Assembly (NCBI RefSeq): GCF_003018115.1
Contig: NZ_CP027457.1
DNA: 64,000 bases
Reading direction: 5' to 3' (one strand)
Source: Escherichia coli
Lineage (GTDB): Bacteria; Pseudomonadota; Gammaproteobacteria; Enterobacterales; Enterobacteriaceae
The position numbers and the translations under genes were made by a program. Position 1 is the first letter of the stretch. Each line of letters opens with the position of its first letter. Below are positions 4,540-29,125 of the stretch, piece after piece. The notes under the pieces were generated by a model. That model saw only the letters and a program-made list of their open reading frames with translations, searched no databases and was not told the DNA's origin.

Positions 4540-5529
4540 TTAGCCGCCAATGTACGATAAGTTTTGCGTAATACCGGTGTTGTTTTGATGCAGGAAATGG
4601 GTCTGTTTCTTCTCCCGCAGCGCCGCTGAAATACGCGCTTCCAGCGCCTGTTGCTGGGCATCGTCTTCCAGCAGATCGCGCAGGTTAACACCGCCTTCAC
4701 CAAACAGGCAGAGATGGAGTTTACCAATGGAGGAAACGCGCAGACGGTTGCAAGTGGCGCAGAAGTCTTTTTCATACGGCATGATAAGGCCAATCTCTCC
4801 GGCGTAATCCGGATGACAAAAGACTTGCGCGGGACCGTCGCTGCGTTGACGTAATTGGTGGATCCAGCCGCGACGCAGTAGCTCGTCACGCAGAACCTGA
4901 CCAGAGATGTGATGCTTACGGAAGAGCTCGCTGCCCTCGCCCGTTTCCATCAGTTCGATGAAACGCAGCTGGATGGGACGATGCTGGATCCAGTTCAGAA
5001 AGGTGTCGAGCTGGTGATGATTAACATCACGCATCAGCACTGTATTGACTTTGACCTTCTCAAAACCGGCCTCAAATGCAGCATCAATCCCCGCCATGAC
5101 CTGGTTGAATTTATCCTGCCCGGTAATAGCGTGAAACTGGCGGGCGTCCAGACTGTCGACACTGACGTTGATGCCAGTAAGTCCAGCATCGCGCCAGTTC
5201 GCCACATCGCGTTCCAGACGGTAACCATTGGTGGTGACCGCAATCTGGCGGATAGCGTCGTTTTCTCGCACAGCGGCGATGATATCGGTAAAGTCGCGGC
5301 GTAAAGACGGCTCACCGCCTGTCAGGCGCACTTTTTCGGTGCCCAGACTGGCGAAGGCGCGCGTAACCCGGCGAATTTCATCGACGGTCAGAAAGCCTTT
5401 ATTGGTGACGCCGCTCGGTTTGTAGCCATCCGGCAGGCAGTAGGTGCAACGAAAGTTACACACATCGGTAATCGACAGGCGCAAGTAGTAAAACTTACGC
5501 GCAAATGCATCAGTCAGTTGTGAAGCCAT
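4540..5529 (-). CDS. moaA: GTP 3',8-cyclase MoaA (radical SAM)
   Basis: Translation from [31 protein letters not shown] (CxxxCxxC radical SAM motif); 329 aa. Confidence 0.92.
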
Positions 5530-5534
5530 GTACA

Positions 5535-5680
5535 CCTTTCCAGATACGGGAGGCGAAGTCATTTCTTCCTTCGCCCTGGTGGCAATCTTTACGAGCATTG
5601 TCACGGCCAAAGCACCGTATCAGTTGACCCAGGTGCAGAGGCTAGAGTGTTTAGTGGTTAAGCCGATACTAGCGTGTAAA
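5535..5680 (-). ncRNA. Probable molybdenum cofactor (Moco) riboswitch in the moaA leader
   Basis: Position only: structured 5' UTR immediately upstream of moaA, where E. coli carries the Moco RNA motif; boundaries approximate. Confidence 0.4.
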
Positions 5681-5865: not shown

Positions 5866-6834
<969 letters not shown>

Positions 6835-23999: not shown

Positions 24000-24455
24000 C
24001 TATCTCCCGTGATTCAGGAAGTCGATTAGTTCTTCGCGTGTGGCGCTGTAAAAAGTCACGTCATCCACGCCTTTAAAGTATTTCTTGATGGTTCCGACAC
24101 GCTTAAGGCCAATCATTGCGCAGTAAATCTGCCCGTGGCGGAATTTGCGTGCGGCGAACGATGTGACGCACTGAACGGTGGTGTTAGTCAGAATGTATCG
24201 CCAGAAAGCCAGCCCGATTTCCTTGCTGAATCCACGAATCTCTGGCAGGTACATGGCGTGGCAATCGAATGTCAGCGGCTGAATCTCCTGATAGTAAACA
24301 ATGCCGCCGAACTGACCGTGCACGTTCACCTCAAAGTAACGGCAATCAGGTTTGTAGTCGTATCCATCACCGTTGTTGCTCCCGGCAATAATGTCAGGGT
24401 GATTTCCGACTGCTTCTATCAGGTCGATGTTTCGCGTTGGTTTGAACTGAATCAT
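24000..24455 (-). CDS. P22 gp14-like virion protein
   Basis: Translation [51 protein letters not shown]... Confidence 0.8.
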   Translation of the reverse strand: MIQFKPTRNIDLIEAVGNHPDIIAGSNNGDGYDYKPDCRYFEVNVHGQFGGIVYYQEIQPLTFDCHAMYLPEIRGFSKEIGLAFWRYILTNTTVQCVTSFAARKFRHGQIYCAMIGLKRVGTIKKYFKGVDDVTFYSATREELIDFLNHGR

Positions 24456-25303
24456 TACTGCTCCGCGATTATCTTGATGGTTGTGGCAGTAAACGCCGCA
24501 CCATTCGACTGAATGGTTAACGTGCTGCCATTTGTGGCAAGAAAGCCGTCTTTATCCACGCTGAAGAACGTAGCTAACAGGATGTTATCGGTCGTTGTCG
24601 CCGAGTTGCGGCTGCTTACCAGTGTGTCAGGAACAGAGCCGGAAAAGGTTAGCTGCATTGACCTGTTGGCTGTTCCGCTGGGCCACGTCCCGACGATCGA
24701 CAGCTTGAAGAACAAGGTTTTGTTCTCGTTGAACACAACCATCTTGTTGTTAACGGTGTCGAAGAATGGTGCCAACGTGCCGGATGACGGCGTGAGCGTT
24801 TTCAGCAGGCTAACAAGGTTGGTCGGCGCTGTCGGGATGGTTACTGATACGCCAGAGTAAACAACCTCTGACTTCTTGCGAGTAGTGGCATACTCCAGAG
24901 CATCGATGCGCGTTTCATGGTCTGAAACCTGCGATTCCAGCGACTGAACTCTGGTATCAAGCGACGCAATATCGCTTTCATTCTGCGCTATTCGTGTTTC
25001 ATGTTCCTGAAGAGTTGATTCTGCCTGGCTGATTCGCTCCTCATGATTAACAAGCGTTGCTTCCGCAGCAGAAATTCGCTGCTCATGGTCAGCGAGAATC
25101 ACATCCTGCTCATCGTTCCTGACCTGTGCATCATAAGCGCCCTGTCCGGCCTCGTTGGCCTTGTTAGCCACGTTACCAACATCAGTGCCCTGTGCGATAA
25201 CGTAAAGCAGATACGACTGCGAGAAGATATTGCGTGGAAGGACTGATGTGTCGAGCCGTGTAGCCTGAATGATTACCGGCACATTGAGATTCGAATCAGC
25301 CAT
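24455..25303 (-). CDS. Tail needle protein (P22 gp26-like) with extended C-terminal knob
   Basis: N-terminal [52 protein letters not shown] plus heptad-repeat coiled coil; 282 aa versus 233 in P22. Confidence 0.8.
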
Positions 25304-26721
25304 TACTCAATCCTTATCTGGCAGCCTGACAGAGTGACAGGTGACTTCGTGATAACGCGCAATTTGAAGCCGACATTTTTCCTGATGCGCCCGACTCGCT
25401 TCCACAAAACACGTTTGTCGTAAACGAACGGTTCATTCTGTTCAATCATCTGCTCACGTCCGTAATTTATGCCGTCAGTGGTTGCAGAGAGGAACAGGCG
25501 GTCGGCGTACTGCGCAACGCCAGTTGACGATTCAACCTCAAGGTCGAACACTCTGGCGTTATCCGCTTTGAACAACGGAGTAAACAGCAGGTGTTCCTGT
25601 TGCTTGTCGTACTGGCTGCTGATGTCGAATTGCAGTTTCCCGGTAACAGATTCCAGCTTATCGCCGCACGTTATCTGATTGCCTTCGTAAATGAAGTCGA
25701 TAGCGCGGTACACATCGTCATACAGGCCTGTTTTCAACACACACCATTGCGGACCATTGGCGCTTGAAGATGCGTCGTACACGAGGACGTGACGCGGAAG
25801 GTGGATAATCAGCAACTCATGAGCATCAAATCGCAGAGACTCCATCACGCCATCAGCCAGTTCATCAGCAGTGTAGGAGCGGAGGATTTTCTCAATGCTC
25901 GCGCTGGCGATTGGTGATACCTGACCAGATCCGATGATGTATACAGACGGCGCACCCGTTGCCGGATTGCTGATGAACGCATACGAATCAGCAAACGGCG
26001 TTTTGCAGTAAGTCCCGGCGATGCCTTTTTGCACCATCAGCGATGGCTGGGCGACATACAAAGCAGCACCAACGGTGGTTGCACCAGTCAGGGAAAAATA
26101 CTCAATCGTCGATGAACCAAAGCAGACGATGAAGTCTCGCCATGTCCCGATACCGATAATGCCGTCCGGCTGCGATTCTGCGCGATATTGTGCACTGTAT
26201 CGGTCAGGGTGCGATTCGTCTCCAAGGTCAGTGATAAACCATGAATCAGTGCCGTCTTTTGACCACGCATAACGCCCACGTAAGCGTGTAATGTCGCGGA
26301 CTGAACCTAACTCATACTGCGTAAATCCGCTGTCTGTAGGCCAGTTTGAGACGGTTTTAACCGTACCATCATAGCGATACTCGACCAGTTGACCATTAAC
26401 GCCTACCGCTTGTGATGTCCGACCATGTGCCATTGATACGCGACCACTTCCGGCGACGTCACCGACTTCGCTTTCGCCCTTATACAACTTGCTACCACAC
26501 ACGCGATAAACAGCACTCTGCGCCATGTTGTACTCGACGCCGCGCGATACTCCGTTCACATCAGAACGTTTGGCAATGCCCGGGAATGAGCGAAGATATC
26601 CGCTGCTGTTCAGGATTTCTTTGGGTGTAGCCAGCATATTTACTGGCAGATAGTCGATATAGTCGGCGTTTCGAAAGTCTTTGCCGACACCTTTCATAAG
26701 CGGAAGTTGCTGAATCGGCAT
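25303..26721 (-). CDS. Tail accessory protein, P22 gp10-like
   Basis: 472 aa, same length and position as P22 gp10. Confidence 0.8.
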
Positions 26722-27221
26722 TATTCGCTCCCGTTATCGCAAGGTTCCTTTCGGTGGAAGTAATTCCAACCGTTCCACTTCGCCAACTGGTTACCGCTAC
26801 CAACAGGCATACGGTTTGGATAACCGGACTTACATTTAGCGGCTTTTGCTCTGTCCATTGCAGACAGTTTGACGAGTCGCTCTTTCCCGTATCTGGCAGT
26901 GGTTATAAGTTTTGCAGACGCTTCCAGCGCATAATCTGGAGCAATGCGGCAGGCAAGGTTGAAAATGACGGCATTAATAGCGTTATTTGATAAGCCGTGC
27001 TCATCGCCCGGATCCGGAGCAACATCTGCATCAGCAAAAATGTAGCCAACGTTGATACCAGGTGACGCATCACCGCCAAGCCATTCAGCCATCATCATTT
27101 CAAGGTCGTTAACGCCGTCTTCCATAGACTGCGGTTCGACATCGGTTAACGTGGCATTTGATGCCACACCGAGCTTACGTAATGCCGCAAGAACTAAATC
27201 ACCCTTCGTTGTCAGGTTCAT
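26721..27221 (-). CDS. Tail accessory / head-completion protein, P22 gp4-like
   Basis: Translation ...[43 protein letters not shown]... matches P22 gp4. Confidence 0.8.
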
Positions 27222-27786
27222 CTGCTGCCGCCTTAGGTTTTCGACCAGGCTTTTTACGCTGTTTTTCTTCTGGCTCTGCAATGGCCGGACGCAAACTCAG
27301 GAGTCGTCCAAGAACATCATTTGCTTCATGACCATCCCACTCTTTCCCGAACTCAAGCTCAGTACCTTCAGGAAGGAACTCGATTTCTTCAACAGGTAGG
27401 TGATAAGTGATTTCGCCTTCTGGAGTGGTGATACCAGCAATAATCCAGCCATCCCACTCTTCACCGTCACTGTGTTTGCGAGACCACCACGAAAGCTCAG
27501 CGTAAGCATGCATCAGCGATGAGAAGAGGCGCACTCGGTGAGCGTAAAGCTCGTTAAAAGTGTGATAACCGTCGGACACTTCGCCCATATCAACTGGGGA
27601 AGTTTCACCTACGCCAACACTCCCAATTTGATCACCAACAAGAGGATCATCAGGAACATCGTCAGGGTGCTTATACCAGCCATTTGCTAAGTGCACAGCT
27701 ACATCATCAGGATCAACGGTTTTCGTTTTCAGCTTGCGCCCCCATATTTTGGTATCTCCGCCAGCCTGAAAAATCATTACGCTCAT
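27199..27786 (-). CDS. Hypothetical protein inserted between coat and gp4 genes
   Basis: 195-aa [21 protein letters not shown]... with GGAG RBS 7 nt upstream; no recognised family. Confidence 0.5.
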
Positions 27787-27796
27787 TGGTATCTCC

Positions 27797-27821
27797 AATA
27801 GAAAAGGGAGCCGAAGCTCCC
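27797..27821 (-). terminator. Hairpin plus T-tract immediately after the coat gene (terminator/attenuator)
   Basis: GGGAGC-TTCG-GCTCCC followed by TTTTCTATT on the minus strand. Confidence 0.55.
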
Positions 27822-27829
27822 TCTGGTTA

Positions 27830-29125
27830 TCACGCGGTCTGGTTAGGCAGACCAACACCAATTGCCTCTGGTCGTACAGCACATGCTGAATACCACACAG
27901 CAATACGGCACTTACCAGACAGAGTGTTGATATCACCCTGCGTTGCGAAGATGCCGTTAACACCAATACCAGGAATGCTGAAGGAAGACGTTTTCATGCC
28001 AGCAAACAGTTCATGGGTTACCGGGATCGGCTGAGACAGCAGACGGATTGAGTCATCAGCCCAGAACACGTTAGCGGTGGTCGTTGCCACGTTCAGAACG
28101 TTTACCGGAGTGGTATCAGCAAGAGAGGTGTTTACGTTAGCGTAAGCCTTCTCTTCTTTTGTCAGTGAAGCGTCATCAAGCGCAATCGGCTTCGGCGTGA
28201 TTTCGATGTGAGTACCATCGATCACACGGGTGATTGAGAAAGTCGCATCATCAGTCAGCACGTTCTTCGCCATCTGAGACAAGAATTTCACACCAGTGAA
28301 GCTGATTTTGTCGCCGCGCTTAAACCCGGTGGTGGAGGATACGGTCACCGTTGCAACACGGTTGTCGACGTTCTCTTTGTTACCATCGGTATCAAGGGTG
28401 TATGCCTGCGGCTTAAACTTCTGCGCACCAGAAACAGTTACACCAGTAGCGGTTGACTTGGTAACTGCCGGAAGTTTCGGTGAGCGAAGAATTTCATCAA
28501 AGCCAGCAATCTGACGCTGAATAGTACCGTTGCGATACGCTTCTTCAGGAACGCGCCCGAAGATGTCACCATCTACCAGGTTGCGGCCTGCTTTGCGGTA
28601 ATCGTCAGGGTTCAGGAAGTAACTGATGCCCATATCGCGGTTTAGCTCACGGGAGAACATCAGGCGCTCTGCATCAGACACAAAATCCCAGCCAGACAGG
28701 CCAGTAGATGGACCAATTGCGCGGGTATCGTGAACAACAAGCGAGCCCATTTCAGTTGCCTGTTTGGCAATCGCTGACTCAATGTTATTCGCCAGTTTTT
28801 TGGCGGATGCCTGGATGCGGCGACGGTAAGAACGCTCATCACGCAGGTCATCTGCACGAAGCTCGAAGAAATCGTTATCCGGATCGCCCATGTTGCATTT
28901 CACGGACAGTTCCAGAATACCGGTAGCGTTGCCAGTTAAATCCCAGCCAGTCTGAGTTGGCGCTTCCTGCTCAACAGGCATCCACACGGTGTTGCTTGAA
29001 CGTTGCATGGATTCTGCCGGAGGGGTGTATTTTGTCACTTTTGACGCCATTGGCGTCAGGTTCTGGACGGTTTCGATGATTTCATCCAGAGCATACGTGA
29101 CCAGTTGACCTTCATTTAATGCCAT
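27830..29125 (-). CDS. Major coat protein, P22 gp5-like
   Basis: 431-aa translation [54 protein letters not shown]... Confidence 0.92.

Follow-up and report, generated by a model that had tools for sequence, protein, structure and literature searches.

What is the gene that separates the coat protein gene from gene 4 in a P22-like prophage of Escherichia coli, and what could its product do for the phage? The question is raised by a stretch of 64,000 nucleotides of an E. coli chromosome (NCBI RefSeq assembly GCF_003018115.1, contig NZ_CP027457.1; this whole stretch is referred to as the window), which contains such a prophage. An earlier note, made from the letters of the window only, had described an open reading frame of 195 amino acids between the coat and gp4 genes, here termed ORF195, and had considered it an extra gene compared with phage P22. 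The open reading frame is indeed present, on the minus strand, and it is almost certainly the long allele, bearing a domain named WDGH, of a gene that P22-like phages conserve in the slot between coat and gp4. As to function, our reading, held tentatively and judged to fall a little short of an even chance, is that ORF195 is an accessory protein of the late operon whose WDGH domain probably forms a homodimer that would bind or cleave a small molecule, most plausibly an immune signal.

ORF195 and the coat-gp4 slot

The Pfam domain WDGH (PF25311) is found in residues 68-165 of ORF195, which cover the complete profile (positions 1-97 of 97) with 134.8 bits against a cut-off of 27 (E = 1.3e-39), and the protein matches the PHROG family phrog_3769 over its full length (amino acids 1-193, E = 3.7e-101). 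No other domain appeared in a Pfam scan of ORF195 up to E 0.1. The eponymous residues W150-D151-G152-H153 are present, and ORF195 matches every column that is at least 90% conserved among 149 diverse WDGH members. Because of these two matches, and of a 90%-identity cluster that comprises 1,929 sequences including ORF195, we regard it as a real gene; for open reading frames on the plus strand overlapping the same region no support was found. The central part of the protein, which the earlier note could not place in any known family, thus has a place in PF25311 and PHROG 3769 and has even been named in RefSeq, where the gene appears either as 'hypothetical protein' or as 'WDGH domain-containing protein'. 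The description of an acidic protein with a conserved core and a lysine-rich tail was accurate, and the motifs quoted for the core lie inside the WDGH domain. The isoelectric point of ORF195 is 4.7, and its sequence ends with DEPDNEG. An AlphaFold2 model calculated with 76 homologues has a mean predicted local distance difference test score (pLDDT) of 86 and divides the protein into the modules given below together with the flanking features.

26721..27221, minus strand: homologue of gp4 (head-tail adaptor), downstream neighbour, start codon ATG at 27221, P22_Tail-4 E = 1.1e-58
27199..27786, minus strand: ORF195, start codon ATG 27786-27784, stop codon TGA 27201-27199, 195 amino acids
27199..27291, minus strand: basic disordered tail, amino acids 166-195, plus stop codon; identical to the Bas106 tail
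27228..27235, minus strand: TAAGGCGG, Shine-Dalgarno region of gp4, inside tail codons (P-K-A-A)
27292..27591, minus strand: WDGH domain, amino acids 66-165, predicted alpha+beta fold, pLDDT 96-98; absent from short alleles
27592..27651, minus strand: linker, amino acids 46-65, acidic, proline-rich and disordered, pLDDT below 50 at amino acids 50-61
27652..27786, minus strand: N-domain, amino acids 1-45, predicted beta-hairpin and helix, pLDDT means over blocks of 10 residues 86-96 for amino acids 1-40; specific to the slot
27793..27796, minus strand: Shine-Dalgarno sequence GGAG of the slot gene, 6 nucleotides before the ATG, read from the sequence; left edge of the swapped cassette
27797..27824, minus strand: post-coat terminator-like hairpin (stem 27824-27803) with T-rich run (27805-27797)
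27830..29125, minus strand: homologue of coat (gene 5), upstream neighbour, Pfam P22_CoatProtein E = 2.8e-166

The slot between coat and gp4 is filled in every P22-like phage that we examined:

P22 (NC_002371): stem-loop at 6102-6119, then orf69 at 6135-6344, overlapping the start of gene 4
Phage L: coat, 'terminator', 'Orf186 protein', gp4
Sf6: terminator 't coat', then gene 6
Bas106: open reading frame of 76 amino acids (Bas106_0006)
Louie: unannotated open reading frame of 82 amino acids

The belief that P22 proceeds directly from gene 5 to gene 4 was therefore mistaken: NC_002371 annotates the stem-loop and orf69, a protein of 69 amino acids, between them. As P22 has the same hairpin and a homologue of ORF195, the slot gene is a conserved feature of P22-like phages. 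The earlier note had itself named such conservation as grounds for refutation, and these grounds apply in part; hairpin and slot gene occur in all junctions compared, which leaves nothing 'extra' about the gene as such, and what varies is the central part only, with WDGH as an optional element. The long form, too, is on record. It is present in phage L (Orf186), epsilon34 (gene 6), ST104 (ORF54), ST64T and BTP1. The P22 copy has been described as internally deleted ('partly deleted relative to epsilon34'), of unknown role and non-essential (Villafane et al. 2008), and it is this wording that identifies the epsilon34 allele as a long one, while the genome paper of phage L lists orf186 with 'detailed function unknown' (PMC8022706). 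The slot gene, the hairpin and the length polymorphism are thus already described for phages L and epsilon34, and the domain is already in Pfam; what is added here to an otherwise ordinary genome feature is a functional hypothesis for WDGH.

P22 orf69 and Bas106_0006 match phrog_1175 over their full length and, in addition, the first 45 positions of phrog_3769, and the N-terminal 61 amino acids of ORF195 match phrog_1175 (E = 1.4e-8). It follows from these matches that the short alleles consist of the N-domain and the basic tail; relative to them, the long proteins have about 120 additional residues between these two parts. Gene 6 of Sf6 belongs to a different family (phrog_3251), yet it ends in a similar kind of tail. 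The tail reads KKPGRKPKA in ORF195, RKGRKPKA in P22 and KRGRKA in Sf6, and P22, L and Sf6 all retain its [KR]-G-R-K motif but encode it by different codons, which argues for selection on the peptide. The tail was also considered as an AT-hook, a resemblance only, as the canonical G-R-P core is missing and G-R-K-P stands in its stead. The 3′ end of the slot gene always reaches into gene 4: the final 23 nucleotides of ORF195 are shared with the start of gp4, as in Bas106, and the overlap amounts to 17 nucleotides in L and P22 and to 26 in Sf6.

Annotation of the slot is uneven. In Louie (PQ850616.1), the slot gene at 2275-2523 was passed over and an out-of-frame coding sequence for 45 amino acids at 2202-2339, which spans the hairpin, was annotated instead. 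The same phage has an HNH endonuclease gene inserted in the opposite orientation between scaffold and coat (L003, 346-873), and its linker differs from that of Bas106 by an expanded short repeat of the GAGCCAGAGTCA type, seen in the protein as an extra ESEPES segment. Some other E. coli genomes list the WDGH slot gene as 'hypothetical protein' or as two open reading frames, and start sites are annotated inconsistently. In NZ_CM142764.1 (L017, 20500-20889), the RefSeq annotation pipeline PGAP calls a protein of 129 amino acids from an internal methionine and leaves about 240 nucleotides after the coat gene unannotated. The full frame of 195 codons is intact there and 98.8% identical, with three substitutions, all within the linker. 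The shorter call is therefore an artefact of start-site annotation, and a real disruption of the gene in the E. coli genomes with the 129-amino-acid call was ruled out.

Exchange of the cassette between related phages

Long and short alleles occur in phages that are otherwise nearly indistinguishable around the slot. The window and the phages Bas106 and Louie, whose gp4 is 99-100% identical to that of the window (100% for Louie), share near-identical DNA through the 3′ end of coat, the hairpin and the ribosome-binding site. Similarity is lost at the start codon, the window is about 370 bases longer, and identity returns at CAGAGCCAGAAGAA (around 27278) and continues into gp4. Both boundaries are the same when L is compared with P22. 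The N-domains of such a long/short pair are only about 35-40% identical, and we therefore conclude that the alleles differ by replacement of a cassette between conserved flanks and not by simple deletion. Recombination in the tail and, at the opposite end, in the conserved hairpin and ribosome-binding site exchanges the N-domain together with the WDGH segment between otherwise near-identical phages.

The frequency of the alleles was assessed in complete E. coli genomes, of which 247 out of 5,426 match the coat-gp4 segment at no less than 95% identity. Among these 247, the long allele is present in 42 and the Bas106-type short allele in 174. Long alleles were found with both subtypes of the N-domain. 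A profile search with the N-domain is no census of the alleles, since only short proteins were among the best 120 matches listed and known long alleles (e.g., P0001) were missed. Natural pairs of phages that differ essentially by the cassette only (L and P22; the prophage of the window and Bas106 or Louie) offer controls for assays of defence evasion.

Mosaicism was also seen nearby. The tail-needle gene of the window (24455-25303, minus strand) encodes a protein of 282 amino acids with an Sf6-type knob (PF16532). The needle of Bas106, despite a 99.4% identical gp4 and the same adjacent gp10 arrangement, has 233 amino acids and no knob, and the mosaic joint lies directly after gp10.

Post-coat hairpin and expression

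The hairpin with its T-run behind the coat stop codon and the GGAG ribosome-binding site of ORF195, both reported in the earlier note, were confirmed. The hairpin begins five bases past the coat stop, has the core GGGAGC-UUCG-GCUCCC and is followed by UUUUCUAUU. With a stem of nine base pairs (six of them core G-C-rich pairs), a UUCG loop and a U-tract it has the make-up of an intrinsic terminator, and it is a putative site of termination in vivo. Its predicted folding energy is -19.2 kcal/mol (z = -2.5 against dinucleotide shuffles). A simple scan for consensus terminators did not list it, in our reading because the stem can pair into the T-run and too few trailing T's are then left for the rule. 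At the equivalent position there are hairpins in the window, L, P22, Bas106 and Sf6, each followed by a T-run and with stems of differing sequence, GGGAGC/GCUCCC or GGGGC/GCCCC; the annotation of P22 lists a 'stem_loop' there, those of L and Sf6 a 'terminator'.

A consensus scan, a weak test, revealed no sigma70-like site near ORF195, and only 16 nucleotides separate the hairpin from the ATG. Nor is there a terminator of its own 3′ of ORF195, which runs into gp4. The sequence TAAGGCGG is kept in the window, L, P22 and Sf6, 6-8 nucleotides upstream of the gp4 start codon; its position inside tail codons implies that the initiation of gp4 translation constrains the slot gene at its very 3′ end. 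Antitermination of the Q/gp23 type is an established property of lambdoid late operons. ORF195 would accordingly have no promoter of its own and would be transcribed within the late operon by antiterminated RNA polymerase that reads through the post-coat hairpin, and it would be translated from its own GGAG site. Translation of gp4 would then be coupled to that of ORF195, and such coupling is probable because the 3′ end of ORF195 carries the gp4 Shine-Dalgarno sequence and start codon. The late genes of the related prophage BTP1 are transcribed as a single polycistronic operon that is expressed at a low level in lysogens, and the capsid cluster has internal transcription start sites, the positions of which are not stated (PMC7067206).

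A search of the whole window against Rfam returned nothing at the hairpin and a single match elsewhere, a molybdenum cofactor (Moco) riboswitch (RF01055; 5517-5661, minus strand; 103 bits, gathering score 36). The riboswitch lies outside the prophage in the flanking host DNA and overlaps the annotated start of the open reading frame at 4540-5610 (minus strand). ARAGORN found no tRNA gene in positions 1-64000. A closely related prophage in E. coli GPEC60-33-648 has genes for tRNA-Thr and tRNA-Asn between the antiterminator and lysis genes (L017, 30516-30671).

The WDGH family

WDGH is a large family, with 3,657 clusters at 50% identity (E <= 1e-3). At least 91% conservation among the 149 diverse members was found, in the numbering of ORF195, for S71, D72, G73, H75, T76, F77, E79, L80, Y81, H83, R84, L87, F88, W100, S102, H105, D107, G108, G113, G118, G124, Y128, H129, W150, D151, G152, H153 and R161, a constellation that, judged from the sequences, looks like a catalytic or ligand-binding site. 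A sequence search of the PDB gave nothing (best E = 0.52), the modelled fold has no neighbour among solved structures, matches among the viral structures of BFVD were confined to unnamed WDGH proteins, and neither by sequence nor by fold did we see similarity to any known metabolic enzyme. A search of the literature for WDGH or PF25311 yielded nothing relevant.

Proteins with this domain are distributed widely among the phages of Proteobacteria, Firmicutes, Actinobacteria and cyanobacteria, in myoviruses, siphoviruses and podoviruses alike, and strictly lytic phages, A511 and P100 among them, commonly have them. In Listeria phage A511, Klebsiella phage SopranoGao and metagenomic phages the gene stands among small early or accessory genes, in cyanophage S-2L near one genome end, and in Streptococcus phage IPP39 between portal and head-morphogenesis genes. 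Pfam partners of WDGH in the same polypeptide were counted among the 149 representatives:

Sequestin (PF21825): 6 of 149
Lar_restr_allev: 3 of 149
Acb2_Tad1_hairpin: 1 of 149
Tad2-like: 1 of 149
YodL: 1 of 149
RNase_T-type exonuclease: 1 of 149
Zinc ribbons: 1 of 149

The Lar fusions were located through a CPFCGG motif and confirmed for P0224. One protein, P0101, is a Tad2-WDGH-Sequestin fusion encoded in a P22-like prophage of Serratia between the lysis cassette and the terminase/portal genes (L010, 6001-6798), which shows that the late operons of P22-like phages can likewise encode verified sponge domains. On a metagenomic contig (L018, 4071-5870), a Tad2-like gene for 293 amino acids lies directly upstream of a gene for a WDGH-Sequestin fusion. 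Around this pair, close to an integrase, lie further small genes without annotation, and the array may be an anti-defence island. At another locus (L023, 4222-5768), adjacent genes for 260 and 255 amino acids both encode WDGH, and the protein of 255 amino acids (P0151) has two tandem WDGH stretches.

Such natural tandem WDGH-WDGH proteins have a counterpart in modelling: a linked pseudo-dimer reached a predicted template modelling score (pTM) of 0.81 in AlphaFold2 with the linker fully disordered, against 0.58 for the two-domain monomer, a result consistent with a WDGH homodimer. Two further candidates for the nature of the domain were tried and rejected. A DNA-mimic role in anti-restriction does not agree with an acidity that is not conserved (median isoelectric point of the domain 5.3, range 4.4-8.3, among the 149 members) or with invariant histidine and arginine residues; and the H-x-[ST]-x motif pattern of 2H-phosphoesterases (Acb1-like) was not seen, on inspection by eye only.

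Possible function of the WDGH domain

The view of ORF195 as an accessory gene of unknown function, put forward in the earlier note, was borne out, and the protein is probably non-structural and expressed from the late operon. The general picture is that WDGH would be a non-structural accessory module, most likely a homodimer, with a conserved pocket of His, Asp, Arg, Trp and Tyr residues that would bind a small molecule or cleave it. A nucleotide-derived signal of bacterial immunity would be the likeliest target and would make WDGH a counter-defence domain of phages. WDGH becomes a candidate for counter-defence because it is fused or adjacent to Tad2, Sequestin, the Acb2/Tad1 hairpin and Lar, and this follows the logic by which Sequestin (PF21825) was discovered, namely through fusions to Tad2 and Acb4, before it was verified as a sponge for 3′ cyclic adenosine diphosphate ribose (3'cADPR) (bioRxiv 10.1101/2025.07.12.664507). 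That study of Sequestin, Lockin and Acb5 does not mention WDGH, and strings of the WDGH and YHLP motifs occur in none of six of its supplementary files, which include the screened sequences and cover Table S1 in part. We suggest tentatively that WDGH serves in counter-defence through action on an immune signal. Slightly more doubtful is the fuller proposal that WDGH is a very large counter-defence family whose homodimers would sequester or hydrolyse a signal of the Thoeris type or of the type of cyclic oligonucleotide-based antiphage signalling systems (CBASS), and that it travels in P22-like phages as swappable cargo of a late-operon carrier. Confirmation would bring a new family into the anti-defence repertoire of phages and would mean that anti-defence modules can ride inside clusters of structural genes.

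Several points weigh against counter-defence as the function. The assignment follows from guilt by fusion and neighbourhood, recognised anti-defence partners occur in no more than about 8% of the WDGH proteins sampled, and ORF195 itself has no partner domain of the Tad2, Sequestin, Acb2 or Lar type. The Lar domain of Pfam is a zinc ribbon of loose functional meaning, and the fusions of one WDGH to an RNase_T-type exonuclease and of another to YodL leave room for other roles. PADLOC and NCBIfam gave no matches. Expression from the late operon is unusual for counter-defence genes, though the Tad2-WDGH-Sequestin fusion is also located in a late operon. The predicted dimer derives from a linker trick, and for both hairpin read-through and gp4 coupling we extrapolate from what is known of lambdoid phages and P22.

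Among the other explanations, the one that survives best, though we consider it rather unlikely, is that WDGH is an enzyme or a binding module with another purpose, for instance in host takeover or in the metabolism of nucleotides or nucleic acids, and that its fusions with sponges reflect a mere tendency towards concatenation. The dense invariant His, Asp, Glu and Arg residues look more catalytic than a typical sponge pocket, the exonuclease in the fusion is of the RNase_T/RNase H-like kind and YodL is a second such partner, most WDGH proteins have no recognised partner at all, and in many types of phages the domain occurs among early genes of unknown function. Yet the partners that recur belong to four different counter-defence families and not to metabolic domains, Tad2-like partners occur both in fusion with WDGH and in the gene next to it, and the searches described above did not connect it with any metabolic enzyme in sequence or fold.

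Somewhat less likely still is that the slot gene serves mainly as a leader for translational coupling of gp4, or in DNA handling at packaging and head completion, with a tail that binds DNA or RNA and a WDGH domain that is a near-neutral passenger. All variants, including the unrelated gene 6 of Sf6, end 17-26 nucleotides inside gene 4 and contain TAAGGCGG, the [KR]-G-R-K motif is maintained across lineages through different codons, and the short allele is the commoner one in E. coli (174 versus 42 genomes). On the other hand, orf69 of P22 is reported to be non-essential in the laboratory, and the canonical AT-hook core, GRP, is absent from the tail. Strong purifying selection on WDGH, with many invariant residues throughout 3,657 clusters, means that the domain is not neutral. 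A leader function deals with the carrier part of the gene and not with its cargo.

The suggestion in the earlier note that ORF195 could be a decoration or virion protein found no support, and a role as a decoration, cementing or minor head protein appears improbable. The gene does lie inside the cluster of head genes and is co-expressed with late genes, the WDGH gene of IPP39 has a comparable position next to portal and head-morphogenesis genes, and a predicted homodimer with a disordered tail could in principle dock on a capsid. Virion gels of epsilon34, which has the long allele, however, differ from those of P22 only in gp13, the tailspike and a Dec band of about 15 kDa, and they contain no additional band of about 21 kDa attributable to gene 6. 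Capsid modules that are 97-99% identical work with either allele, no search that we made revealed a sequence relation to Dec, and WDGH occurs in phages of all tail types in arrays of non-structural, early or accessory genes, also of unrelated phages, and in fusions with cytoplasmic sponge domains.

Finally, the term moron, the other suggestion of the earlier note, applies only loosely, and a classical moron in the sense of a gene for lysogenic conversion that has its own transcription and is expressed by the prophage to the advantage of the host is very improbable: a central domain that is present or absent among close relatives, which bears out the notion of optional cargo, a terminator-like hairpin ahead of the gene and the internal start sites in the BTP1 capsid cluster would fit, but the consensus scan showed no promoter-like site in the 16 nucleotides between hairpin and ATG, there is no terminator before gp4, the hairpin, the ribosome-binding site and the gp4-overlapping end are shared with the short allele, in the transcriptome of BTP1 lysogens the structural region is expressed only weakly and is not singled out as an accessory locus (PMC7067206), and WDGH is common in the strictly lytic A511 and P100.

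Comparison with known systems

The closest relatives of ORF195 are the homologues from phage L (Orf186), epsilon34 (gene 6), ST104 (ORF54), ST64T and BTP1, grouped as PHROG 3769, which resemble it in position, three-module architecture and hairpin. Over amino acids 1-167, ORF195 is 62-64% identical to these L-type long proteins (63% to L Orf186). It differs from them by a slightly longer linker and by its tail, which is lineage-specific, the E. coli short-allele phages having the identical tail and L a different one; furthermore, its prophage has the Sf6-type needle knob, unlike the L-type long-allele phages. P22 orf69, Bas106_0006 and the Louie open reading frame of 82 amino acids, grouped as PHROG 1175, share with ORF195 the slot, the hairpin, the ribosome-binding site, the fold family of the N-domain and the basic tail that overlaps gene 4. 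They lack the approximately 120 residues of linker and WDGH, and their N-domain is only about 35% identical to that of ORF195.

The hairpin itself has parallels in the post-capsid hairpins of lambdoid phages (Sf6 't coat'; the P22 stem-loop, noted as HK97/lambda-like). These have a GC-rich stem, a tetraloop and a T-run as in the window, begin 4-9 nucleotides past the major capsid stop codon and lie in a late operon under Q antitermination; only the stem is lineage-specific (GGGAGC versus GGGGC).

Outside the P22-like phages, A511 gp21, P100 gp128, SopranoGao_65 and S2L_55 of S-2L have a WDGH domain of about 97 amino acids with the same invariant residues as ORF195. There the domain stands alone or has other N- or C-terminal extensions, and it is encoded mostly in early or accessory arrays and not in the head cluster.

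By sequence, ORF195 belongs to none of the Tad2, Sequestin, Acb2/Tad1, Acb4, Acb5 and Lockin families, and WDGH has no similarity in sequence or fold to Tad2 (PF11195), Sequestin, Acb2/Tad1 or Acb5. Like these four, WDGH is a small phage-specific domain; it is predicted to form homo-oligomers and would have a comparable conserved pocket of aromatic and basic or histidine residues, and it is fused to, or encoded beside, sponge families in single polypeptides and loci.

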